From: an uncultured delta proteobacterium
GTDB taxonomy: Bacteria; Myxococcota_A; Polyangia; Polyangiales; Polyangiaceae
Direction of reading: 5' to 3'
Length of the DNA: 64,000 nt
NCBI GenBank assembly: GCA_963841435.1
Contig: CAWJCS010000004.1
Location: 448,001-512,000, forward strand
Shown: piece after piece, positions 28,760 to 42,503 of the stretch
Numbering within the stretch: the first letter of the stretch is position 1
How the letters are laid out: every line of letters begins with the position of its first letter
Program-made: the position numbers and the translations under genes
The notes under the pieces: model-generated
Seen by the model: the letters and a program-made list of their open reading frames with translations, nothing else
Told to the model about the DNA's origin: nothing
The model's database searches: none

Positions 28760-30689
28760 TTGCGCATTTTCGTGCAGCGCTCGGACGTCGGCGAGTTCCG
28801 CCGCCACTATCGCTGGATGGTGCTCGGCGTGTTCACGGGCTTTTTTCTGCTCGTGGGGCGCCTCGTCCAGCTGCAGCTCATCGAGGGCGACGTGCATCGC
28901 GCGCAGGCCCGCCGCAACATCATCCGGGAGGGCTACCTAGCGACCACGCGTGGGGTCATTCGCGACGCGCTCGGACGCGTGCTCGCCGCCAATCGGCCCG
29001 CCTACAACGTGTACGTCACGCCAGCGCGACTCGACATGGAGAAGGGTTGGCCGCTCGTCGTGCGGCTCGCGCGCCTCGAAGACGACGAACGCAAGGCCGC
29101 GGAAAAGAAGATCGTCGAGCGTCGTAAGCTCGATCCGAAGGATCGCCGACGCATGCAGCAGATCCTCGTCAAGGTGGACATCGATCGCGATGCGGTCGCC
29201 TATCTCGAAACCCACGAGCGCGAGCTCGACGGCATCGAGGTCGCTCCCGCGCCCGTGCGGTATTACCCGTTCGGCTCGCTCGGCGCACACCTGGTCGGCA
29301 CGATGCGGGAGGTGAGCCGCGAGGATCTCGCTGGGCTCGGGGAGCGCGGCTACCGCTCGGGCGACCGCACGGGTGCGATCGGCATCGAACGACGCTGGGA
29401 AAGCTACCTGCGCGGGCAGCGCGGTATGCGAAAGACGGTCCGCGGCGCCGGCCGGCGCCTCGACCCCGAGGCGCTCGAGGCGAAATACCTCGAAGAGCCC
29501 CGACGCGTCGAGCCCATCCCCGGCCGCGACGTGTCGCTCACCGTCGACGTCGACGTCGAAGCGGCCGTCGAGCGCGCCATGCGTGGTCAGCTCGCCGGGG
29601 CGGTTGTCGTCGCCGACGTGCGCACGGGGCGCATTCTGGCGGCGCTCTCCAAGCCGAGCTTCGACCCGAACGTCGTCTCGGGCGGGCAGGGGAGCAAGGC
29701 CGTGAGCGAAGCCTTCACGCGGCTCTACGCCGATCCGCTCAAGCCGACCCTCGACAAGACCATCTCCGCAGCTTACCCGCCGGGCTCCACCTACAAGCCC
29801 TTTAGCGCACTCGCGGGTCTCGCTGACGGACTCATCGACCCGCGCGCCGAGGTTGATTGTCGTGGCGGCTACGAATACGGCAAGCGCTACTTTCGTTGCA
29901 CCGGAGTACACCGCCGCGTGAACCTGCACGCCGCGATCGTGCAATCGTGCAACACGTACTTTTACGACCTCGGTTCGCGCATCAGTATCGACCGCCTGGC
30001 GTCAATCGGGCTCGATTTCGGCTTCGGGGTCGCAACGGGCATCGGCGTGAACCCCGAGGCGCGCGGGCGCATGCCCACGCGCGGCTGGTACACGCGCCGC
30101 TACAAAGAAGCGTTCCGCGGCGGCTTCACGGTTCTCTCCGCGATCGGCCAGGGGGCGACCACGGTCACGGTGCTCCAACTCGCGCTCGCGTACGCGGCGC
30201 TCGCCAACGGCGGCACCGTGTACCAACCTCAGGTCGTTCGCAGCATCGAGACGAGCGACGGGACGATCGTCCAGGAGTTTCCGCCGCGCGTGCGCCGCAT
30301 CGTCCACCTCAAGCCCGAGCACCTCGCGCTGGTCACGTCCGCGCTGCACGACGTCGTCGAACAACCGGCACGGCACGGCTTACGCGGAGCGCATCGAGGG
30401 CGTCGACGTCGCAGGCAAGACCGGTACGGCCCAGGTGAGCCATGTCACGCCGAAAGGAGTCGATCCGGGCCGGGTCTGGTACTTCAACCGCGACCACGCC
30501 TGGTTCGCGGGCTACGCCCCGGCCGGCTCGCCCGAGATCGCCATCGTCGTGCTCATCGAGCACGGCGGCGGCGGTGGCAAAAACGCCGCTCCCGTCGCGA
30601 TGCGCGTGATCCGCGACTGGCAGAAGCTCAAGGCGGATCGCCTTTCGTCGCGCGCTCCGAAGGACCAACCCGCGCGGGGGAATCTCTAG
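28760..30689 (+). CDS. mrdA: Penicillin-binding protein 2; +1 frameshift near 30368 (probable sequence error)
   Basis: PGSTYK (SxxK) and SCN (SxN) in the first frame. GTAY...AGKTGTAQ and DHAWFAGYAP lie in the next frame, which ends at 30689. Span is 3n+1. Confidence 0.9.
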
Positions 30690-30691
30690 CC

Positions 30692-31807
30692 GTGCGGGAT
30701 CGGGTCTCGTTTCGCAGCGGCCCTGGTATCGACATGCCGCTGCTCGCGGTGCTCGTCGCCATCATCACGCTCGGGCTCGTCAACCTCTACAGTGCCACCA
30801 GCGTCTACGCCGACGACGCGCAGCGCGTGCAGCTCGCCGACATCTACGTCTCGCAGATCTATTGGATCGTCGTCGGCACGCTGCTAGCCATCCTGGTCGC
30901 GTCGATCGACTATCGAAACTTCGAGCGCTTGGCGATGATCGCCTACTTCGGAGGGCTCGTCGCGCTGGGGCTCGTGTTCGTGCTCGCGCGCAACATTCGC
31001 GGTGCGTCGCGCTGGATCGCGTTCGGCAGCTTCAACTTTCAACCGAGCGAGTTCATGAAGATCGTGCTGATCCTCGTGATCGCGCGCTACCTGCACAACG
31101 ACCCCAAGATCGAGCCACGGACGCTGCTCGACCTCGCGCCGCCCGCCTTCTTGACGCTGGTTCCGGTCGCCTTCGTGATGGCGCAGCCCGACCTCGGGAC
31201 ATCACTAATCTATCTGCTCACCGCCGGTTCCATGCTGGCGATGACCAAGATCCGCAAACGTAGCCTCGCCACGCTCGGCGCCATGGTGGCTGTGGCACTG
31301 CCGCTTGCCTGGAACTTCCTCCTCCTGCCGTACCAGAAGGATCGCATCACGAGCTTTCTGAATCCGGAGAACGACAAGACGGGGGCCGGCTGGCACGCAC
31401 TCCAATCGCAGACCGCGATCGGCAATGGGCAGCTCTTCGGGGAAGGCTTCATGCAGGGGACGCAGAATCAATTTCAGTTCTTGCCCGATCAGTTCTCGGA
31501 TTTTCCCTTCGCCGTCCTCTGTGAAGATTGGGGTTTCGTCGGCGCCGTGGTGCTGCTCGGGCTGTACTGTTTCGCCTGCATCTGGGCGATCCACGTCGCC
31601 TCGCAGGCTCGCGATCGCTTCGGTGCGGCACTCGCCATCGGTGTTGGGGCGAACCTCTTCTGGCACGTGGTGCTCAACGTCGGGATGGCCATCGGGCTCT
31701 TGCCGGTCGTGGGTGTCACGCTGCCGCTCTTTTCGTACGGCGGCTCCAATGTCGTGACGATGATGGTCGCCTTGGGCCTCCTGATGAACGTTTCCATGCG
31801 GCGCTGA
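30692..31807 (+). CDS. rodA: SEDS peptidoglycan glycosyltransferase RodA
   Basis: GASRWI, FQPSEFMK, QPDLGT, FLPDQFSDF, LPLFSYGGS; GTG at 30692. Confidence 0.93.
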   Translation: MRDRVSFRSGPGIDMPLLAVLVAIITLGLVNLYSATSVYADDAQRVQLADIYVSQIYWIVVGTLLAILVASIDYRNFERLAMIAYFGGLVALGLVFVLARNIRGASRWIAFGSFNFQPSEFMKIVLILVIARYLHNDPKIEPRTLLDLAPPAFLTLVPVAFVMAQPDLGTSLIYLLTAGSMLAMTKIRKRSLATLGAMVAVALPLAWNFLLLPYQKDRITSFLNPENDKTGAGWHALQSQTAIGNGQLFGEGFMQGTQNQFQFLPDQFSDFPFAVLCEDWGFVGAVVLLGLYCFACIWAIHVASQARDRFGAALAIGVGANLFWHVVLNVGMAIGLLPVVGVTLPLFSYGGSNVVTMMVALGLLMNVSMRR

Positions 31808-31852: not shown

Positions 31853-32518
31853 ATGCTCGGGGGGTCGAGCATTACGGGCGTGCTGAGCCGCGTCCGAGGG
31901 CTTTCCCTTCTGGTGCTCGGATTACCCGTTGCGGCTTGCAGCGCTGGAAGCGCCACCGGCGACCACGCCTCGAGCGGAGGCGCTCCCGTTGCGGGCACGG
32001 GCGGTAGGTTCTCGGGTGGCTCCGGCGGAAGCATCGCGGCTCAGGGCCGGCGGCGCCGCGAGTGTCGGAGGGACGGCCGGAGGCTCGTCGGCAGCGGCTG
32101 GGCAGGGTCGTGTCCCATCCGGCGGCGTCGCCGGGCTCGGCGGTCGGGCGGCGTCGCCGCGGGTGGGGCGGGGGTCTCGGGGGCCGCAATCGGGGGAACG
32201 GGCGGAGCCGCGGGAGCGGTCGGTGCAGCGACGCAACCGGTGGCATACCGCATCACGTTCCACCACAACTGGTGGTCCACCAACGTCGCGGAGCGCATGC
32301 CGCGCGTGCGGTTCGGTCAGGTTCACGCGTTCAACAACTATTACGGCACGGGACTGGGTACGAACCTCGACAACGACCACTGCGTGCGTGCCGCCCTGCC
32401 GGCCGGACCGCGAATCTTTCGTCGAGCGCTGCCGCTGCGATGCCGGCCGCAGCAAGGTCACTCGAGATTGAAAAGGTCGTCGAGGTCCTCGCGCGAGAGC
32501 AGCTTCTCGCCCGTGTGA
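31853..32518 (+). pseudogene. Lipoprotein remnant with a short polysaccharide lyase family 1 (pectate lyase) fragment
   Basis: VAAC lipobox and Gly linker (partly in another frame, ~32045-32145), followed only by ITFHHNWW...ERMPRVRFGQVHAFNNYY. Confidence 0.55.
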
Positions 32519-35500
32519 TCTTCGCTCAAGACCGAGCTCACGAGGTCCTTCTTGCGCTGCTTGAGCTCGAGGATCTTCTCCTCGATCGTACCCGCGGCGA
32601 CGAGCCGGTACACCGTCACGACCTTCTTCTGACCGATTCGATGCGCGCGGTCGGATGCCTGATCTTCGACGGCGGGGTTCCACCACGGATCGAAGTGAAT
32701 CACCGTGTCGGCGGCGGTCAGATTCAAGCCCGAGCCACCCGCCTTGAGGCTGATCAAAAAGACTGGAATGGTGGGATCGCTCTGGAAGCGATCGATGCGC
32801 TCCGGTCGATCCATCGTGCTGCCGTCGAGGTATTCGTAGCGGATCTTGTCCTCGTCGAGCGCCTGGCAGATGAGCTTCAGCATCGAGACGAACTGGCTGA
32901 AGATCAGCACTTTGTGTCCGCCAGCCTCGACCTCGTCCACGAGCTCACGAAGCGCCGAAAGTTTGCCGCTGTCGTCGTGACTGAACTCGCGCGGAAGCCC
33001 CAGAAGTCGGGGATCGCAGGCCGCCTGCCGTAGCTTGGTGAGGCCCGCTAGGATGTGAAGCTGGCTCTTGGCCATGCCGACCCGCTCGACCTCGCCCATG
33101 ACCTGGGCGCGCACTTCGCGCAGCACCTGCAGGTAAATGGCGCGCTGGTCGGGCGCCAGATCGACGATTTTGTCCACTTCGAGCTTCGGCGGTAGGTCTT
33201 TCGCCACCTCCGTTTTCGTTCGCCGCAGGATGAACGGGTGGATGACCGAGCGAAGGCGCGCAGCGCGCTCCGAGTTGCCCTGCTCGATTGGGCGCGCGTA
33301 GCGTTCCTCGAACTTGGGCAGGCTGCCGAGCAAACCGGGGCTCACGAAGTCGAAGAGCGACCAGATCTCGCTCAGGCGGTTTTCGATGGGCGTGCCCGTG
33401 AGCGCCAGACGGTGGACCGCCTTGAGATCCTTGGCCGCCTGTGCGGTCGCGCTCATGGGGTTCTTGATGGCCTGAGCTTCGTCGAGGATGGCGTAGTCGA
33501 GGCGAAGCTCCTTCAAGAGATCGATGTCCCGCCGGAGCAACGCGTAGCTCGTGATGATGACGTTCGAGCTCTCGAGCTCGCTGGCTTGCTCTTTGCGCCC
33601 TGCGCCATGCCACAGCGCCGTCGTCAGCGAGGGTCCGAAGCGCTCGATCTCCCGCACCCAGTTGGTGACGACGCTCGTCGGCGCGACGATCAGGGCGCGC
33701 AGGGCGTCTTCCTTCTTTTCCTGCTTCAACGACAACAAGAGCGCGATGGTCTCGATGGTCTTGCCGAGACCCATGTCGTCGGCCAGCACGCCGCCCGAAC
33801 CGATCTCGTGAATGAATCGCAGCCAAGCGAGTCCCTGCTCCTGGTAGGGACGCAGGGTTGCCTTGAGCCCCTTGGGCTTCTTGGCCGGCTTGATCTCGTC
33901 GATCGACTCGAGCTTGTGGAACAGCTCCTTCGTGGCCGCGGCGACTGACGGGCTCGATGCGTGCTGCAGGAGCTCCTGCACGCGGCCCGCGTGCGAGAGC
34001 GGCAGCTTGCCGGTCTTTCCTGCTGCGACGATCAACTCCACCTCGCGGTCGAGCAGGCTCTGAACGCGCTCCGCGTCGATGGGCGCGAAGGAGTTGTCGG
34101 ACAGGCGAACGTATTTTTTGCCTTCGCGCAAGCAGCGTTCGAGCTCGTCGCGATTGACGCCCACGCCCTCGCTCTCGTAGCTCACCTTGACGCTCAGCCA
34201 GTCAACGCCGCTCGAGACGCGGGCGTTCATCATCACCGGCTTCGAGCGCACCTGGGTGCCCACGAGCTCCTCGGGCACGTAGAGGTCCCATTCCTCGGGT
34301 AGCGCCCCGACGCCCTCGGACCAGAAGGCGATCGACCCATCGCCGTGCGCCACGAAGTGCTGCCCGCTCTCGTCGGCCTCGAGCCCCAGCTCGAGCAGCT
34401 TTTGTACGGCGCTCTGTTGCCCGGCGATGTCGCAGCGCACGCATTTCGCACGCTTCTGACCCTCCTGGGGCGGAAGGATCATGATCGGCGGGGAGATGCC
34501 GTCGGCGCGCACCTCGACCTCGAGGCCTCCGTAATCCGCCTTGAGCTCCACCTCGACGTCCGTGAGCGAGCCGCCCGCGCGCATGCGGAACGTCGGCTCG
34601 AGATCGACAACGTCGGCCACCTGCGACAGATCCGGCAGCTGGGCGCCGACCTCGCTTGCCACCTTGGGCAGGCCGTAGGTGATCATGCCCATCAGCTCCG
34701 AAGCCGGCTCGGCAATCGTCGGGCTGCGCAGGAGGCGCCTGAGCGCAGCCGGTGCGACGCGCGCGTCGAGGGGCCGCGCTACGCCGTCGCTCGTGTCGAT
34801 GTGCCACCCGGGTGCACCTTCGAACCAACCGCCGCTCGTGAGCTGGAAGCGACGGCCGTCCCCACGTTCGAAGGTCACCTTCGCGACGATCGTTTCGCTG
34901 CCGACGAGCTCCAGGTCGAAGCGGGGTCGGAGTGGCTCTTCGACGAAGCGCAGCTGCATGAGGGCCGGCTCGAGCAGTACCCGTCGTTCGCGTAGGAGTG
35001 GCAGTAGCTCTGCCGCGTCCTCGCCGCGAATGTCGACGGCCGGATGCCGCGGATTGCCGCTCTCGAAGCGCGACAGGACGCGCAGCGCGCCGCGATCGGG
35101 AGTCGGCGTGATCGCCTGCCAGCCGAGCGCCACGCTGGGCAAGAGCGGGGCGCGGTGGTCCACGTCGAGGACGGTGACGGTCAGGCCACCCTGCCGCACG
35201 TGGACGCGAAATTCGAGGTGCAGCGCCTTGGTCGCCGACTCCGGCGGCAGCCACGCCCCGATGCCGGTCGGACGCGCGCTCGCGTCGACCATCGGGGCCA
35301 CGTAGTGGGTCTGGGGTGCGCTGAGCTGCTGGACCTGCGCGCGGCGGCGACGGTCGCGGCGGCGGCTGCCCTTGGCGGCGTCGCCTCCGCCGTTCTGCGC
35401 GTTGGGGTGGGGATGAGAGTGTTGGTGCACGGGTGCGTTGTTGTTGGTGCGCGGGAGTTGCGAGCGCGCTCGGTTGCGGACGGTGATGAGCAGAGCGGCA

Positions 35501-35766
35501 ACGTGCTTGCAGTGCTGACCGGTCTTCTGAAACGCCGGGCACGTGCAGTGCGACGTGATGCCTTCTCCGCCGAGTCGGATCGTGACGGCGTATGGGTCGG
35601 GATCCGAGCCACGCACTTTGCCTTGCGCCGTGGATTCGTTCACGTCCACGTCTTCGACGACCTTGCGCTTCTCGTAGTCGAGCCCGCGGAGGAACGTTCG
35701 CGCACCGAGCAGGCGTCTCAGGCCTCGGTCGGAAAGAGTGGACAGGGCGTCGGCTAAACTGGACAA
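32458..35766 (-). CDS. SWIM zinc-finger SNF2-family helicase/ATPase
   Basis: CTC...CKH SWIM; LRPYQ, LADDMGLGKT, ILDEAQ, LTGTPIEN, WWNPAVEDQASDRAHRIGQ. Confidence 0.93.
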   Translation of the reverse strand: MSSLADALSTLSDRGLRRLLGARTFLRGLDYEKRKVVEDVDVNESTAQGKVRGSDPDPYAVTIRLGGEGITSHCTCPAFQKTGQHCKHVAALLITVRNRARSQLPRTNNNAPVHQHSHPHPNAQNGGGDAAKGSRRRDRRRRAQVQQLSAPQTHYVAPMVDASARPTGIGAWLPPESATKALHLEFRVHVRQGGLTVTVLDVDHRAPLLPSVALGWQAITPTPDRGALRVLSRFESGNPRHPAVDIRGEDAAELLPLLRERRVLLEPALMQLRFVEEPLRPRFDLELVGSETIVAKVTFERGDGRRFQLTSGGWFEGAPGWHIDTSDGVARPLDARVAPAALRRLLRSPTIAEPASELMGMITYGLPKVASEVGAQLPDLSQVADVVDLEPTFRMRAGGSLTDVEVELKADYGGLEVEVRADGISPPIMILPPQEGQKRAKCVRCDIAGQQSAVQKLLELGLEADESGQHFVAHGDGSIAFWSEGVGALPEEWDLYVPEELVGTQVRSKPVMMNARVSSGVDWLSVKVSYESEGVGVNRDELERCLREGKKYVRLSDNSFAPIDAERVQSLLDREVELIVAAGKTGKLPLSHAGRVQELLQHASSPSVAAATKELFHKLESIDEIKPAKKPKGLKATLRPYQEQGLAWLRFIHEIGSGGVLADDMGLGKTIETIALLLSLKQEKKEDALRALIVAPTSVVTNWVREIERFGPSLTTALWHGAGRKEQASELESSNVIITSYALLRRDIDLLKELRLDYAILDEAQAIKNPMSATAQAAKDLKAVHRLALTGTPIENRLSEIWSLFDFVSPGLLGSLPKFEERYARPIEQGNSERAARLRSVIHPFILRRTKTEVAKDLPPKLEVDKIVDLAPDQRAIYLQVLREVRAQVMGEVERVGMAKSQLHILAGLTKLRQAACDPRLLGLPREFSHDDSGKLSALRELVDEVEAGGHKVLIFSQFVSMLKLICQALDEDKIRYEYLDGSTMDRPERIDRFQSDPTIPVFLISLKAGGSGLNLTAADTVIHFDPWWNPAVEDQASDRAHRIGQKKVVTVYRLVAAGTIEEKILELKQRKKDLVSSVLSEDHTGEKLLSREDLDDLFNLE

Positions 35767-35816: not shown

Positions 35817-37880
35817 TCAGTAAAAGAAGGGAGCGATAAGACCGATCGAAGTGGCCAAGAGCGAGAGCGTGGACGCTAGAGGTCCCGCCGAGTTGCCTAG
35901 GATGTCAGCCAACGAGTTGCCGCCAACGGATGCCGCGAAGCTTGCGGGGTCTCCCTCGGGTCGGCTCGCTCGGCGCACGGCGAGCAGAACGGCTCGGGCT
36001 CCGTTCGCCGTAAGCGCGACCCAGAGGGCAGCCACCGCTGCCCCCACGGCAAATGCCGCGAAGGCCTCGGCCGCCAAACGAGGGCTTCGAACTCGATACA
36101 CGAGGTCGAGGGCGATGCCAAGTAGAACCGGCGGAACGAGCCCCAGGAGGGCGAACCGCGCCCCCCCTCGGGCGGCTGCACGGGCGCACTCGTCCTCGCA
36201 GGCCCGGTAGCTCGGGCCGCCGACCGCCGGATCGCGGCCAGGTTCGTCGAGCTGCCTGTCCACCTCCAGGCTCGCGTCGAGCGCTGCCCGCGCGGCTGCC
36301 CGCGCGGCGAAGGCGGCGCCCGTCGCGACGAGCGCCGCGCCAACCAGCGCGACCCAAACGGCGACCGTCGATGCGAGTGGCGGTGCGTCGCTGCTCACGG
36401 AAACCCACAAGACGAGGCTCGTTGCCACAGCGCCCGTGACGCACAGCGCATGAGCACGCGCGGTGGCCGCGGGAACCTGGGCCGCATCGTCCAGACGTTT
36501 CACGCGGCGTGTCGTCTCGGGATCCGCGGGAGCCATGCCGAGAATTCGGCGAGCGCTCTCCGAGACGACCGACGAGAGCTCAATGGCCAAGGCGTGAGGC
36601 AAGAGCGCGAGCGCGCCGGCGAGCGTGAGAAGGGGTCCCACCCTCGCGCCGTGAGGGATGCCGCTCGCCGTGCCGGCAAACCGAGCCAGCACGGCCGCTC
36701 CCGCCAGCAGCACGAGCAACGCGCCTGCGCGCTCGAGACCGCTCGCGAGCCCCAGCGCCGAGGTCGGACCCGCGCCCGCGCGCAGGAGGCCCTGCGCCGC
36801 GCGCGTCGCACCGCTCTGAGCGCGGGCGGCGCGCGCGAGCCACGCCGGTCCGGCGACGGCGACGAGAAGCCCAGCCGCGCCCGTTGCCGAGAGGGCGGCC
36901 CACCCAGCGGGAAACAGCCAGTAGCACGCGCCGAGCACGCCGAGAGCCGTCACCCATAGCGCGCTCGCAACACCACGAAGAAGCGCCAGGCCGGGCGGCT
37001 CTTCCTCGTCGCAGCGCGTCGCGAAGAGACCCGCTGCGCAGCCAATGAGCCCGAACCCGAGAACGAGTGGCGCGAGCGCCGCGACGCGCGCCGCATCCGC
37101 GCCCGAGAGCCCCAGCCTCGGTGGCAGACCGTCGGCGAGCGCGAGCAGCGTCGCCGTGACCGCGACGGCGCGAGCAGCGCTCGCCCCCGCGCCGACGCCG
37201 AGCCCGACGAGCCCGGCGACGAGCGCGGGATTCTTCGGATCTGCGGCGCCGAGCGGGGGCGACGCAAGCGCCCCCCGGTGGCTCCCGGCGTCCGCGGCCA
37301 CCCGGTAAAGCGATGCCGCGCGCTCGATCAAAAAGGCGGCGAGAGAAGCGCCGATGGCGTAGCCCGGCAAGCTTGCGGCCGAGGACGCCGTCCCGGTCGT
37401 CGCACCGAGCCGGACGAGCCGCTCGACGAGAGTCAGCCCGAGGCCGACGACGAGCGTGGCGGCTTGGGTGCCCAGTCCGAGGGCGGCGCCGGCGCGTAGC
37501 GCCGTCGTCAGCGCGGCGTCGAAGCGCGATCGAGCGTGCTCGATCGCGCTGCCGGCCGCGCGCCCTGCCAGCATCCCGCCGGCCTGCGCAGCGAGTGCGC
37601 CGAGCGCCGCGCCCGTGACGACGCCGAGGGCGCCGGCACCCCCAGCGCCCGATTGTCCTCGCGCCGCGTCGACGGCGAAAACGCCGAGCGCCGCCGCGCC
37701 GGTGACGAGCATGAGCCCCGGTCGCTCGCGCGCGAGCAGTGAGGCAAGCGCGCGCTCGACCGCGCTCACCACACGCCATGCTCCCGCCGCGTCGCGCTTT
37801 CCGACGTGCACGCGCGCGAGCGCCAGGGCGAGCAACAAGCCGCCGGCCGCAAGCGCGAGGATGAGCACGAGCTCTGTCAC
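35817..37880 (-). CDS. Degenerate membrane-bound Na+/H+-pyrophosphatase (HppA) homolog, probably catalytically inactive
   Basis: Collinear remnants ALRAGAALG, YAIGASL, AADAG...DPKNPALVA, EVDRQL, PSYRAC, NSAGP; highly hydrophobic 687 aa. Confidence 0.72.
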   Translation of the reverse strand: MTELVLILALAAGGLLLALALARVHVGKRDAAGAWRVVSAVERALASLLARERPGLMLVTGAAALGVFAVDAARGQSGAGGAGALGVVTGAALGALAAQAGGMLAGRAAGSAIEHARSRFDAALTTALRAGAALGLGTQAATLVVGLGLTLVERLVRLGATTGTASSAASLPGYAIGASLAAFLIERAASLYRVAADAGSHRGALASPPLGAADPKNPALVAGLVGLGVGAGASAARAVAVTATLLALADGLPPRLGLSGADAARVAALAPLVLGFGLIGCAAGLFATRCDEEEPPGLALLRGVASALWVTALGVLGACYWLFPAGWAALSATGAAGLLVAVAGPAWLARAARAQSGATRAAQGLLRAGAGPTSALGLASGLERAGALLVLLAGAAVLARFAGTASGIPHGARVGPLLTLAGALALLPHALAIELSSVVSESARRILGMAPADPETTRRVKRLDDAAQVPAATARAHALCVTGAVATSLVLWVSVSSDAPPLASTVAVWVALVGAALVATGAAFAARAAARAALDASLEVDRQLDEPGRDPAVGGPSYRACEDECARAAARGGARFALLGLVPPVLLGIALDLVYRVRSPRLAAEAFAAFAVGAAVAALWVALTANGARAVLLAVRRASRPEGDPASFAASVGGNSLADILGNSAGPLASTLSLLATSIGLIAPFFY

Positions 37881-37953: not shown

Positions 37954-38556
37954 TCAGCCGCCGAGCTTCTTCGACTGAATCACCATCAGGTGATACTTGC
38001 CGAATTCGCTCTGTCCCAACGTGAACAGCACCTCGATGAACAGCCGGTACGGGGTGCCGCGATCCGCGATGATGATCGCTTCCGAGCTCGAGGGGTCGAG
38101 GCCCTTGGCTCGACGAACCGCGACGTCCGTGCGACGCGCCGACTGGAGGACGTTGCCGAGTGGGACGATGTAAAGGTCGTTCGGCCCGCCCCGCTTGTGC
38201 TGCGCCCCGACGCCCGTCTGGGCCTGCGACTCGCGCCCAGGGAGGCTGATGATCTTCTGATCCCCCACCAAAATCTGGGACTTCGAGATGGTCAGCGTCA
38301 CACCTTCTTGGTGTGGATTGCTCTTCGCGACCGACGTGGGCAGACGAAGATCGTCGCTCTGCGGAATCGCGTTGCTCGACTCACCCAGGGTCTTCAAGAG
38401 GAAGACCAGGATGATGGTCATGATGTCGAGCATGGCCGTGATGTTCAGGAAGTTGACCTCGGGGTCGTGCGCGTTGCGCCGGATGGCCTTCCGGAGCTCG
38501 GCCTTGTAGCGGATGATGGAGCTCTGGCCGTCGCCGCCAGTGGCTTGTTGAGTCAC
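37954..38556 (-). CDS. ExbD/TolR family protein (AglS-like paralog)
   Basis: LNITAMLDIMTIILVFLL TM with conserved Asp; IIADRGTPY. Confidence 0.88.
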   Translation of the reverse strand: MTQQATGGDGQSSIIRYKAELRKAIRRNAHDPEVNFLNITAMLDIMTIILVFLLKTLGESSNAIPQSDDLRLPTSVAKSNPHQEGVTLTISKSQILVGDQKIISLPGRESQAQTGVGAQHKRGGPNDLYIVPLGNVLQSARRTDVAVRRAKGLDPSSSEAIIIADRGTPYRLFIEVLFTLGQSEFGKYHLMVIQSKKLGG

Positions 38557-38575
38557 GCTGCCCTCCGCCTCGACG

Positions 38576-39121
38576 TCAACGCGGCACCTTGAAGTTCACG
38601 TTGGCGAACATGGGGGCGCCCGCCGCGGTCTGCCGCAACGCGTCGATCGCGTTGACGATGATCTGGTACTCGGTGCCCGGGTTCGCCGTGATGTAGACCT
38701 GATCCTCGTCCTCGAACTTCTGCTTCAGCTTGGTCGCGCAGGCAGTGAGCGACGCGTAGTCGTACTTGCCGTTCGAGAGCGGGATCGCGATCCCGGGGCC
38801 CTGCCCGGAGCAGCCGGGCGCGATGTTGCCGCCCGAGGCCTTGAGCGAAAAACCGTCATTCACGATGAAGACGGTCAGATTCAGCGCCTCGGACTGGATC
38901 TGACTGCGGACGCCGGATCCCTTGCCCGATGGCGGCGTGGTTTCGATGCTCGCCGTGAAGGTGACGGCCACCGTCGCGAGCACGAAGATCAGGATGTTCA
39001 CGATGATGTCGAGGAACGGCACGATGTTGAGCTCGCCGCCTTCCTCGTCAGGGGCTAGCTCGCGCGGTTGGCTCAGGCGCCGGATCTTGCCGCGCTGCGC
39101 TGCTGTAAGCGAATCGGACAT
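38576..39121 (-). CDS. ExbD/TolR family protein (AglQ-like paralog)
   Basis: ELNIVPFLDIIVNILIFVL TM; ANPGTEYQIIVNAIDA. Confidence 0.88.
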   Translation of the reverse strand: MSDSLTAAQRGKIRRLSQPRELAPDEEGGELNIVPFLDIIVNILIFVLATVAVTFTASIETTPPSGKGSGVRSQIQSEALNLTVFIVNDGFSLKASGGNIAPGCSGQGPGIAIPLSNGKYDYASLTACATKLKQKFEDEDQVYITANPGTEYQIIVNAIDALRQTAAGAPMFANVNFKVPR

Positions 39122-39136
39122 CGCCGTCGGCGCGAC

Positions 39137-39810
39137 TCAGCCCGGCCGCTGCCCGATGGTCAGCAGGTTGAACGTGCGCTCCATCGTGGACTCGAGGTCG
39201 TGCTGGATAGCCTTGGCGCGCGTGTGGAGGATGATGTGCGTGATCATGCAGAACACCGCGATGCCGAGGCCGAGCGCCGTGTTGTACATGGCTTCCGCGA
39301 TGCCGTTCGACAGCATGCCGCTGCTTGTCGGACTGGGAAAGGCCGGCCTGCGCGATTGCACTGAACGTGGCAATGAGGCCGCTCACCGTGCCGAGCAGCC
39401 CGATGAGGGTCGCGATGTTGGCGAGTGACCACAGCGCGCCGACTCGCTTCTCGGCCTGCGGTTTGAGCTCGGAGAGCTTCTCGCTAAGGGCAGCGTCGAT
39501 CTCATCAGGCCCCTTGTTGGCGTGGGTCAGGCCCGCCTTGACCAGTTGGAGGATGGGGTAATCGCTCGCTTCGCACAGCTTGATGGCCCGGTCGATGTTG
39601 CCCGCGTTGCACGAGCTTTTTGACCTGGGCGAAGAATTCCTTCGAGTTGACGCGGTAGCGCGTGAGCTGAAACGCGAAGCGCTCGATCACGACCGTGAAC
39701 ACGACCGCCGAGGTGCAGAGGTTCAGCACCATGAAAGTCGGGTTGTGTCGGAAAGCTTCGACGAGCTGGCCGGAACCAGCACCTTCGGCCGCTAGGAGCA
39801 GAAGCTGCAT
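39137..39810 (-). CDS. MotA/TolQ/ExbB proton-channel protein (AglR paralog); two +1 frameshifts near 39606 and 39317
   Basis: Joined frames read VVIERF...KKLVQAGNIDRAIKLC...ANIATLIGLLGTVSGLI...LSNGIAEAMYNTALGL. Span of 674 nt is 3n+2. Confidence 0.85.
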
Positions 39811-40478: not shown

Positions 40479-40615
40479 GGCGCCGTCCAGTACCGCCGTA
40501 ACCGAGGCGGGAACGGGTGTTCCGAGGCTCTCAAAAAAAGCCGCGGGTTTAAGTGGCCGCAAAGCCCTCCAGGCATGCAGCCATCTGGCCCCCGCGGGCG
40601 GAAGGTAAACGAGAA

Positions 40616-41269
40616 ATGTCTGATCTCTGGCATCACTACCAAGCGGGCGGTTGGGCCATGTGGCTCATCCTGTTCTGGCTGATCTGCTCGATCGCCGTCA
40701 TCGCCGAGCGCAGCGTGTTCCTGTTCGGCGCCTCGATCAACAAGGACGTGTTCCTCGCCACCATGCAAAAGTGCATCCTGGCAGGGGACGTCGCGAAAGC
40801 CGTGAAGATGTGCTCCGCGGCGAATGCACCGCTGGCGCGCATCGTTCAGGCTGGCCTCGTGAAGGTGAATCGCCCTGACGAAGAGGTCCAGGCGGCGATG
40901 GACGAAGGCGCTCTACGCGAGATGCCGAAGATCACCAAGCGCACGAGCTTCCTCGCGCTGTTCGCGAACCTCGCGATGCTCTGCGGTCTGTTCGGCACGA
41001 TCGTCGGCCTCATCAAGGCGTTCGGCGCCGTCGGTGGTGAGTCGGTCGATCCGAGCCAGAAGGCACGCATCCTCGCCGAGGGTATTGCGGAAGCGATGAA
41101 CTGCACCGCGTTCGGCCTGATCTCCGCGATTACGGCGCTCGTCGGTTTCGCGTTCCTCAACGGCAAGACGCAGACGATGGAAGACGACATCAACGAGGCA
41201 TCGGTCACCGTGCTGAACCTCGTCGTCGCCAACCGTCAGAAGGTTAACCTCCAGGGCCTGGAGGGCTGA
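40616..41269 (+). CDS. aglR: MotA/TolQ/ExbB family motor subunit, AglR-like
   Basis: ERSVFLFGASINK, EVQAAMDE, GIAEAMNCTAFGL, DINEASVTVLNLVVAN resemble my recollection of M. xanthus AglR. Confidence 0.8.
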   Translation: MSDLWHHYQAGGWAMWLILFWLICSIAVIAERSVFLFGASINKDVFLATMQKCILAGDVAKAVKMCSAANAPLARIVQAGLVKVNRPDEEVQAAMDEGALREMPKITKRTSFLALFANLAMLCGLFGTIVGLIKAFGAVGGESVDPSQKARILAEGIAEAMNCTAFGLISAITALVGFAFLNGKTQTMEDDINEASVTVLNLVVANRQKVNLQGLEG

Positions 41270-41287
41270 GTCTCGACACCCGTTTCC

Positions 41288-41328
41288 GCCGGCTCGGCGC
41301 TGCGGCAAGCGCCGAGTTCCGAGCCGGC
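41288..41328 (+). other. GC-rich intercistronic stem-loop
   Basis: GCCGGCTCGG...CCGAGCCGGC inverted repeat with an alternative inner stem CTCGGCGCT/AGCGCCGAG, between aglR and aglQ. Confidence 0.4.
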
Positions 41329-41368
41329 ACCGCGCTCAGGAAAGATAGAGGAGAGAGGTTAGGTTCCC

Positions 41369-41929
41369 ATGGCTGGTATCGACGTTGGTGGTGGTCACGG
41401 CAAACGCGCCACAAACCACGAAATCCCCCTGATTCCCTTCATCGACTTTCTCCTTTGCCTGGTCGCGTTCCTGCTCGTGACCGCGGTCTGGTCGCAGATG
41501 GCGCGCATCAACGCTGACGCTCGCGTCCCTGGCCCGCCGCAGCCCGATGAGCCCAAGGATCCGCCGAAGGAGAAGCAGCTCCACGTCGAGATGAAGGGCG
41601 AGCAGAAGTTCCAGCTCGTGTGGAAGGAAGGGAACACGGTGGTGAACACCATCGACATCGATCGCAAGGCCGTCCCGGTCGGCGATCAGGGCGACTTCCG
41701 CTACCCCGATCTCGCGAAGAAGATCGTCGACGAGTGGACCGCCAATGGCTCGCACAAGGCGCCCACGGACGCCAAGCTCGATCAGTCGGTGCTGCACACC
41801 GACAACTCGACGCCGTTCGGCGACGTGATCGCAGTGATTGATGCCATCTACACCCCGAAGCGCGATCTGACGTGGGGTGGGAAGACCGAAAAGGTCCCCG
41901 CCTTCAACGTGACCTTCGCGGTCAACTGA
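41369..41929 (+). CDS. aglQ: ExbD/TolR family motor subunit, AglQ-like
   Basis: MAGIDVGGG...PFIDFLLCLVAFLLVTAVWSQMAR; conserved TM Asp; second gene of the operon. Confidence 0.75.
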   Translation: MAGIDVGGGHGKRATNHEIPLIPFIDFLLCLVAFLLVTAVWSQMARINADARVPGPPQPDEPKDPPKEKQLHVEMKGEQKFQLVWKEGNTVVNTIDIDRKAVPVGDQGDFRYPDLAKKIVDEWTANGSHKAPTDAKLDQSVLHTDNSTPFGDVIAVIDAIYTPKRDLTWGGKTEKVPAFNVTFAVN

Positions 41930-41936
41930 GGAAGCC

Positions 41937-42503
41937 ATGTCGGACAAGCCGCTCAGCCGTTTCACCCAGCCGATCGCCGTCCCCGGCCGGCGTCTGCTTC
42001 ATCACATCCCGCTCCGGTTCGTGCGCAAGAAGGTGGCAGGGGGCGGCTCGCGCGCCGTCAATTCCGAGATCCCGCTGATCCCCTTCATCGACTTCTTGCT
42101 CTGCATCGTGCTCTTCCTGCTCGCGAGCTTCTCGGCTTCGGGCGAGTTGCCGATCGACAAGAACGTGAAGCTGCCGAACGCGGAAAACGTCATCGACATG
42201 ACGGACGCGCCGATGTGCGCCATCACCGGCACGCAAATCCTCGTCGACGGCTCGGCCGCGGGCAGCACTCGCGTGATCGAGGAGGCGAACCGTCTTCAGC
42301 GCGTCGAGGAGCTCTTCAACATCCTCAAGAACAAGCGTGAGCTCTGGAAGCAGCTGAACCCCGGCAAAGACTTTCCGGGCGTCATCGTGTTGCAGGTCGA
42401 TCGCCGAGTGCAGGCGCTCGTCGTGAAGAGCGTGTTCCAGACAGCAGCGTTTGCTGGCTACCCGAACGTGAGCTTCATGGTCGGGCGACTCGGCAAGACC
42501 TGA
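41937..42503 (+). CDS. aglS: ExbD/TolR family motor subunit, AglS-like
   Basis: IAVPGRR...IVLFLLASFSASGE...LPNAENV...AGYPNVSF resemble AglS; third gene of the operon. Confidence 0.75.
   Translation: MSDKPLSRFTQPIAVPGRRLLHHIPLRFVRKKVAGGGSRAVNSEIPLIPFIDFLLCIVLFLLASFSASGELPIDKNVKLPNAENVIDMTDAPMCAITGTQILVDGSAAGSTRVIEEANRLQRVEELFNILKNKRELWKQLNPGKDFPGVIVLQVDRRVQALVVKSVFQTAAFAGYPNVSFMVGRLGKT

Follow-up and report, generated by a model that had tools for sequence, protein, structure and literature searches.

Membrane pyrophosphatases (mPPases; PF03030, TC 3.A.10) are regarded as primary ion pumps that are active without exception and whose catalytic residues hardly vary. They are obligate dimers with communication between the subunits, and in the published site table several of the residues discussed below show 98–99.9% identity across the family (PMC6882861, in part). 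The K+-independent enzymes of the type described by the NCBIfam model NF001953 have solved relatives from Pyrobaculum aerophilum (8b37) and Vigna radiata (4a01 and the 6af entries). Here we describe a full-length homologue of these pumps that has lost most of the residues on which their chemistry depends. It is encoded in a stretch of 64,000 nucleotides (hereafter the window; contig CAWJCS010000004.1, positions 448,001 to 512,000, assembly GCA_963841435.1) from an uncultured delta proteobacterium of the Polyangiaceae, which are soil bacteria. An initial annotation of the window had read the gene as a retained mPPase pseudoenzyme and as a possible accessory of an adjacent ion motor. We favour, with a probability of roughly 0.62, the first part of that proposal in a more specific form, namely that the protein is a non-enzymatic, non-pumping inner-membrane pseudoenzyme descended from a working K+-independent NF001953-type mPPase of the same locus. 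The protein descends from a pump, has lost the pump's chemistry, and is under purifying selection that is weaker than that on the active paralogue and on the neighbouring genes. Such copies make up a large, monophyletic clade in the Polyangiaceae (the dead clade), to which the window protein belongs and which is nested inside the active NF001953-type enzymes.

The homology extends over the full length of the protein. Residues 23–627 match positions 13–585 of the 645 positions of the Pfam profile PF03030 (H_PPase) with 100 bits (E 1.8e-28; gathering score 29.7), which places the protein in the family by significant full-length profile homology; working enzymes score 598–908 bits in the same test. 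Of the NCBIfam models, the equivalog NF001953 ('sodium-translocating pyrophosphatase') fits best, but its score of 100.8 bits falls short of the curated cut-off (783), so that equivalog assignment is not reached. A phmmer search placed residues 99–686 collinearly on chain positions 158–755 of the enzyme from Vigna radiata (6afx; E 6.2e-10). A profile built from 18 orthologues (A1) matched the Vigna mPPase among the solved structures with E 3e-53 and spanned positions 4–707 of the K+-insensitive enzyme 8b37. Hydropathy also follows that of the active enzymes (r 0.73–0.78 over 669–710 aligned columns). Full-length mPPase homology, for which a search of the H_PPase family and an alignment to Vigna had been suggested as checks, is thus borne out. 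Against 5.8 billion proteins, the top match to the window protein shows 53% identity. In public sources, such proteins go by the names 'H+-translocating diphosphatase', 'Na+/H+-translocating membrane pyrophosphatase', 'K(+)-stimulated pyrophosphate-energized sodium pump' or 'hypothetical protein', and the Myxococcota clusters of the ESM Atlas carry automatic names only ('hypothetical protein', 'Inorganic H+ pyrophosphatase domain-containing protein'). Because databases name the dead proteins as working pumps, metabolic reconstructions of Polyangiaceae would be misled.

The hydrolytic centre was defined by the 16 sites given in section 10 of PMC6882861, of which K5.58, D5.61, D5.65, E5.76, D5.77, D6.35, D6.39, D6.43 and D11.57 precede a conserved helix-12 Asn, D15.61, K15.64, D16.31, D16.35, K16.38 and D16.39. 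The Vigna anchors in the same source (section 10, Table 3) agree with the numbering read from our alignments; the source prints the helix-12 Asn as N12.53, which is inconsistent with its own anchor of K541 as 12.50 (PMC6882861, in part). At these 16 sites the window protein reads VDHAAGLAEQLRNDGN, and only two of them, D253 and D727, are kept, so the hydrolytic centre of a functional enzyme is not in place. For this count the helix-12 Asn was taken to be Vigna N534. Overall, the protein keeps 5 of the 29 tabulated sites. The coupling-funnel and ionic-gate positions R5.50, D6.50, D11.50, K12.50 and K16.50 are occupied by E, A, E, R and L, respectively, and the residues of a functional pump are likewise missing. 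The replacement of catalytic residues that had been read from the motif strings is confirmed by the alignment to 6afx, which shows, among others, K250V, D257H, K261L, E268A, D269A, D279G, D283L and D287A between residues 194 and 231, with D253, D270 and N273 retained. Within this segment, residues 201–225 are comparatively well conserved in the dead clade (0.60).

With the Mg-binding aspartates, the three substrate lysines and the D6.43/D16.39 pair gone, no pyrophosphate (PPi) hydrolysis by the known mechanism is expected; the protein would be unable to bind Mg-PPi, to split PPi or to gate an ion in the manner described for working pumps. In the window lineage the former ion path is probably plugged, because the buried D6.50/K16.50 pair is replaced by Ala and Leu. 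Of 70 members of the dead clade, 36 have both residues of this pair and 29 have neither, a pattern that fits a preserved contact between helices 6 and 16, as judged from residue co-occurrence; since the sequences are related, a Fisher test on the pair does not yield a valid probability. The dimer-interface residues listed in PMC6882861 (in part) are not conserved even among the active enzymes of the alignment and were of no use as a test.

The loss of catalytic residues can be followed across relatives at one locus. All 41 genomes of the genus, including the unpublished genome G331, contain an H_PPase match, and by our reading of the score table 36 hold a low-scoring copy (60–279 bits). Most also hold a copy of ~590 bits; G004 (100% complete), G020 and G325 show the low-scoring copy only. 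Within the genus, the copies are 31–41% identical to the window protein, match it over the full length and contain no stops. The genus search yielded 20 loci, one of them the window's own stretch, and an ExbD/TolR-family gene (ExbD_b) lies upstream in 19 and a SNF2 helicase gene downstream in 19, both misses falling at contig ends. When 301 genomes of the order (including the unpublished genome G147) were searched with a profile, many genera of the same family (f1) scored well above the ordinary-enzyme level (~220–275 bits), and 20 loci of other genera were fetched for analysis of synteny and of the 29 sites. Among these, the syntenic genes of L043 and L054 keep 29/29 sites and score 1018 and 938 bits with NF001953, above its cut-off. 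Those of L045–L047 keep 22–25, with the first losses at N284, D287 (6.43), D294 (6.50) and N508, those of L051–L053 keep 12–18, and all other loci keep 1–15.

A FastTree phylogeny of 90 deduplicated full-length sequences (722 columns) recovered the eroded forms as one clade nested within the active ones, with the window protein in the most eroded subclade; along the tree the number of retained sites runs from 29 to 22–25, then 12–15, then 1–8. The derived states K730G, K694R, K695R, K261E and N284H, shared by the eroded forms, point to one early loss of function and to lineage-specific erosion after it. A search of 1.84 billion proteins was surveyed through its best 150 representatives: 92 of them span the 16 hydrolytic sites in full, and of these 26 keep all 16, 12 keep 11–14 and 54 keep no more than 8; the dead clade accounts for at least 54 clusters at 50% identity among these 150. 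The initial annotation had named retention of the catalytic motifs by close relatives as an argument against a pseudoenzyme. Such retention is found in distant genera of the family only: the 13 nearest relatives (39–53% identical) keep 0–3 of the 16 catalytic sites, and 20 signature residues are almost unchanged in them.

Purifying selection on the dead gene is evident from reading frames, substitution rates and residue conservation. A locus search seeded with the window protein alone returned no relative; the count of open frames is based on 80 loci anchored on the ExbD_b protein. These comprise 60 full single-ORF copies, 7 copies cut by contig ends, one interrupted by a run of N (L118), one split over two frames (L083) and 11 loci without a match, the last group being made up of 6 contig ends, 1 unclear case, 3 deletions and L128. 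The frame is therefore open in 60 of the 62 loci that have complete sequence and a detectable copy. Under GY+F3X4, the ratio of nonsynonymous (dN) to synonymous (dS) substitution rates, omega, is 0.22 in the window subclade (6 sequences) and 0.079 and 0.081 in two other subclades; the closest pair gives an omega of 0.10 at a dS of 0.58 by the Nei–Gojobori method (NG86). Moreover, 38 columns are at least 85% conserved across the 70 dead sequences, and ~20 specific residues are 86–100% conserved although these sequences share roughly 30% identity. Several conserved residues are derived and have no counterpart in active enzymes (R36, A40, R43, A44, R129, S557 and Y558). The signature R36/A40/R43/A44 is 99–100% conserved in the 70 dead sequences and different in 13 active ones. 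Further along the protein, E539, R542, Q543, P556 and Y558 are 96–100% conserved, with a windowed conservation of 0.65 over residues 526–550. These results uphold the earlier proposal of a retained pseudoenzyme, and the protein fits that concept as an enzyme homologue that has lost its catalytic residues and remains under purifying selection. In the split copy of L083 (4831-7059), the only one of its kind among the 80 loci, the break lies near the 5′ end of the gene.

Selection would keep the helix bundle together with ~20 signature residues, mostly arginines. The kept elements would include the loop 5-6 motif 'DPxNPA' and the helix-13 motif 'E..RQ...PSY..C'; like the arginines, both belong to the face that is cytoplasmic in the solved enzymes and, by homology, presumably here. 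Because the best-conserved stretches lie on that side by homology, our best guess is that the cytoplasmic face has a PPi-independent structural or partner-binding role. Such a role would be dispensable enough to permit deletion of the gene in some lineages, and would probably not be part of the ExbB/ExbD motor. The coordinates of the gene, of its segments and of the adjacent genes are collected in the table.

Table. Coordinates of the dead mPPase gene, its segments and the adjacent genes in the window
Feature	Position	Strand	Remarks
Dead mPPase homologue	35817..37880	minus	687 aa, GTG start, uninterrupted ORF
Residues 36-44 (RVVSAVERA)	37749..37775	minus	Clade signature R36, A40, R43, A44; working enzymes read E...EGA
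Residues 194-231, remnant of helix 5, loop 5-6 and helix 6	37188..37301	minus	From alignment to 6afx and site table
Residues 289-322	36915..37016	minus	Nearly invariant R289, R302, G303, W321, L322
Residues 437-472, remnant of helices 11-12	36465..36572	minus	D500E, D507E, N508S, N534Q, K541R; R459, L463 retained
Residues 539-561 (EVDRQL ... PSYRAC), cytoplasmic end of helix 13	36198..36266	minus	Best conserved stretch of the dead clade
Residues 628-667, remnant of helices 15-16	35880..35999	minus	D691L, K694R, K695R, D723N, K730G, D731N; D727 retained
ExbD_b, ExbD/TolR family	37954..38556	minus	PF02472, 44.1 bits; 88% identical to nearest orthologue; 73 nt upstream of dead gene
ExbD_a, ExbD/TolR family	38576..39121	minus	PF02472, 44.3 bits
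ExbB', MotA/ExbB family	39137..39810	minus	Read in three frames; orthologue L036:4697-5467, PF01618, 86.8 bits
SWIM zinc finger + SNF2_assoc + SNF2 helicase	32458..35766	minus	1102 aa, Pfam; 50 nt downstream of dead gene

The uninterrupted reading frame of the initial annotation was recovered at its full length on the minus strand, and all six motif strings quoted there are present in the translation (residues 194–207, 214–231, 437–446, 463–472, 628–636 and 654–667). In the sequence alignment the N-terminus (V/M-TEL...) coincides with those of the orthologues, so that the GTG start is well placed. A second ORF of 399 aa lies inside the gene in another frame of the same strand (36580–37779, minus); such an ORF is typical of GC-rich DNA, a reminder that open frames alone mean little here.

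A number of observations weigh against a functional pseudoenzyme. In the same genomes the active paralogue has an omega of 0.023 and 0.030, which the dead gene exceeds 3–7-fold, and Nei–Gojobori values within the window subclade reach 0.26–0.67, a method that saturation biases upward. At a dN to the nearest orthologue of 0.64, versus 0.08–0.11 for ExbD_a, ExbD_b and SNF2, the gene evolves 6–8 times faster than its neighbours. Its composition has shifted stepwise, with Ala+Gly+Arg+Pro rising from 0.33–0.35 in active enzymes to 0.50 here and Phe+Tyr+Met+Ile+Asn+Lys falling from 0.22–0.24 to 0.06; this drift is of the kind that mutation pressure produces in a weakly constrained protein. The gene has been deleted in L113, L116 and L122, where SNF2 follows ExbD_b after ~400–470 nt and the gaps hold weak tblastn traces of the C-terminal 60–100 residues (E 3e-4 to 0.05 in a tiny database). 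In L128 the gene has been replaced or is too diverged to be recognised. The conserved Arg, Gly and Pro residues could be mere determinants of fold and topology, the mPPase fold of 16 helices in two concentric rings is, for the window protein, itself a prediction from alignment, and a search for sequencing runs matching the window listed no RNA run. Taking these points together with the evidence for selection, we conclude from the sequence comparisons that the protein is probably made and constrained, though weakly, and that its role would be dispensable.

The L128 slot was considered in its own right. In this locus, from one Sorangiineae metagenome-assembled genome, a 634-aa polytopic hydrophobic ORF lies between ExbD_b and SNF2 (L128:4713-6614, plus). 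As a candidate for an ultra-diverged orthologue it gave no match with hmmsearch and an hhalign E of 0.062 over 46 collinear columns, so that homology is unsupported; the ORF could be a replacement of the gene or an orthologue that has lost all recognisable similarity.

The same rates and deletions would suit a translated relic, in which the frame stays open only because stops and frameshifts would be polar on SNF2 and because a misfolded polytopic protein would be harmful, clean deletion being the sole escape. We regard this as possible though unlikely, and as the most probable of the alternatives. A relic would be expected to evolve faster than the flanking genes, to drift strongly towards GC-rich codons, to show a raised omega such as that of the window subclade, and to be lost outright with a weak 3′ remnant left behind, as in the three lineages noted above. 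The tight one-strand spacing (73 and 50 nt) also suits it: a promoter and terminator scan found 0 promoter-like sites and 3 terminator-like sites versus 3.0 expected, none of them in an intergenic gap. However, the omega values in all three subclades are far below 1, and polarity alone leaves residue identity free, whereas ~20 residues, including the derived R36, R43, A44, S557 and Y558, are 86–100% conserved. Moreover, the relic account presumes co-transcription of a putative ExbB'-ExbD-ExbD-X-SNF2 unit.

The SNF2 gene raises a different idea. It lies next to the mPPase-like gene in 19 of the 20 loci from the genus and in 18 of the 20 from other genera, and is thus a more constant neighbour than the motor genes, although this linkage also predates the loss of catalysis. 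The SWIM/SNF2 helicase is highly conserved across the family (74–86% identical within the genus). The Zorya anti-phage system consists of the MotAB-like ZorAB plus the SNF2 helicase ZorD, and the window likewise has an ion-motor stator pair and a SNF2 helicase on one strand. It is conceivable that ExbB'-ExbD-ExbD-(m)PPase-SWIM/SNF2 form one machine, a housekeeping counterpart of Zorya in which an ion-motive-force stator and the former pump, both in the membrane, control a DNA translocase and the dead mPPase serves as the membrane adaptor of the helicase, but we consider this doubtful. The helicase core of the window matches ZorD models at no more than 402 bits and DpdE at no more than 557 bits, which reflects the generic SNF2 core only; the window's ExbB and ExbD proteins match no ZorA or ZorB; and the block is conserved family-wide rather than patchy. 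Membership in Zorya or another defence system was rejected, as PADLOC gave no match for ExbB' (its L036 orthologue was tested), ExbB, the four ExbD proteins or the dead protein. In a broader form of the one-machine idea, the mPPase helix bundle may have a second, pyrophosphate-independent job.

The same genome also encodes a working mPPase. This second H_PPase gene, on contig 2, scores 598 bits with Pfam and 1365 bits with NF001950 and keeps 29/29 sites. Between its helix-11 and helix-12 motifs stand ~25 inserted residues that the solved enzymes lack (L001; G000 contig 2, 609890–611983, minus). That the dead subunit heterodimerizes with this enzyme or modulates it in another way, a part that dead paralogues play for some other enzymes, would be in keeping with the obligate dimers and subunit communication of mPPases (PMC6882861, in part) and with the presence of both an active and a dead copy in most genus genomes. 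We nonetheless find such a regulatory partnership highly doubtful: the paralogue belongs to a distant NF001950-type subfamily, sharing the Pfam family with the window protein at 17% identity and scoring 72.9 bits with the dead-clade profile; the two genes lie on different contigs; and three genomes, the complete G004 and two less complete ones, show the dead copy only. The paralogue also differs from the window protein in its full site complement and in its low omega.

A further proposal made the dead protein an accessory of the adjacent MotA/ExbB-ExbD-ExbD ion motor, acting as gate, leak or scaffold. The 73-nt gap to the upstream ExbD gene (stop at 37954) and the shared minus strand are as annotated, ExbD_b is the upstream neighbour in nearly all genus loci, and the full order ExbB'-ExbD-ExbD-X-SNF2 recurs in 12 of 20 loci of other genera. 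Co-orientation with the MotA/ExbD/ExbD operon therefore stands, with the correction that the 'MotA' gene (~39137–39810, minus) is spread over three reading frames. The proposal itself fares badly, and we hold an accessory role to be very unlikely. Fully active orthologues sit beside the same motor genes, with all sites kept in L043 and L054 and the whole gene order in place in L043, so the motor linkage predates the loss of activity and reflects inherited synteny. Conserved linkage was not found either, since 7 of the 20 loci from other genera break it: in L045–L047 (genomes of 11–13 Mb) the mPPase-like and SNF2 genes form a block inverted with respect to ExbB'-ExbD-ExbD, and in L050–L053 motor genes do not occur within 6 kb, with the mPPase-like gene followed by SNF2 in L051–L053 and standing alone in L050. 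(L054 lacks the SNF2 gene.) The loci thus do not show a motor linkage that is confined to the dead form and accompanies it everywhere. In addition, the motor genes are intact where the dead gene has been deleted (L113, L116 and L122), and in the window it is ExbB' that reads as broken and the dead gene that is intact.

Two single-base insertions, near 39606 and 39319, set ExbB' apart from three close orthologues and end its frame after ~100 codons; ExbB' is either a very recent pseudogene or the insertions are assembly errors. Contigs assembled from the reads of one DNA run, which contains a small share of the window's words, cover ~38520–39647 and bridge neither insertion, and none covers the body of the dead gene. 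The 3-kb genes neighbouring ExbB' are intact. Two divergent ExbB-ExbD-ExbD triads, which may belong to a TonB-, Tol- or Agl-type motor, stand back to back in the window (40553–42503, plus, and 37954–39810, minus); the same arrangement, followed by the mPPase-like gene and SNF2, is kept in 12 of the 20 loci of other genera. Farther along the window, penicillin-binding protein (PBP) dimerisation and transpeptidase domains (63–537) and an FtsW/RodA/SpoVE domain (662–1014) share a single ORF of 1015 aa (28760–31807, plus). These PBP and FtsW/RodA/SpoVE domains are usually encoded in two adjacent genes, and the ORF may be a real fusion or the result of a lost stop codon.

Finally, that the protein is still an enzyme or transporter with altered chemistry, acting on another phosphoanhydride substrate or as a passive cation channel, is scarcely credible, because the retained acidic D253 and D727, the Arg at the K694/K695 positions and the gate pair kept in 36 of 70 relatives are set against a nucleophile-activating D6.43/D16.39 pair that reads Ala/Asn, substrate lysines replaced by V, R and G, a gate pair that reads Ala/Leu, and retained sites that vary by lineage, a pattern that drift would leave and a new active site would not.

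A non-enzymatic, non-pumping pseudoenzyme, as favoured here, would make the locus informative beyond the window. The dead clade is a large natural set of full-length mPPase copies that lack the near-invariant residues and are still under selection, and one syntenic locus gives the whole series from intact through partly eroded and dead to deleted. The series can serve the question of the order in which an active site decays, helix 6 (N284, D6.43 and D6.50) and N508 of helix 11 coming first here, and the questions of what constrains a polytopic scaffold without its chemistry and whether the pump fold has a PPi-independent role. A full-text literature search, which leaves most subscription journals outside its coverage, found no paper on a catalytically dead mPPase.

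Among described systems, the closest are the NF001953-type K+-independent mPPases, with which the window protein shares collinear full-length homology, similar length and hydropathy, and whose active members occupy the same genomic locus. The active syntenic orthologues have Lys at position 12.46 and lack the derived signature residues of the dead clade; unlike them, the window protein is without 14 of the 16 hydrolytic-centre residues, and its coupling and gate residues are replaced. A parallel outside the family is the trypanosome S-adenosylmethionine decarboxylase (AdoMetDC) prozyme. Like that protein, the window gene product has lost catalytic residues, presumably keeps its fold and remains under purifying selection; it differs from the prozyme, as presented in part of PMC5201418, in being an orthologous replacement at the ancestral locus and not a fresh duplicate.

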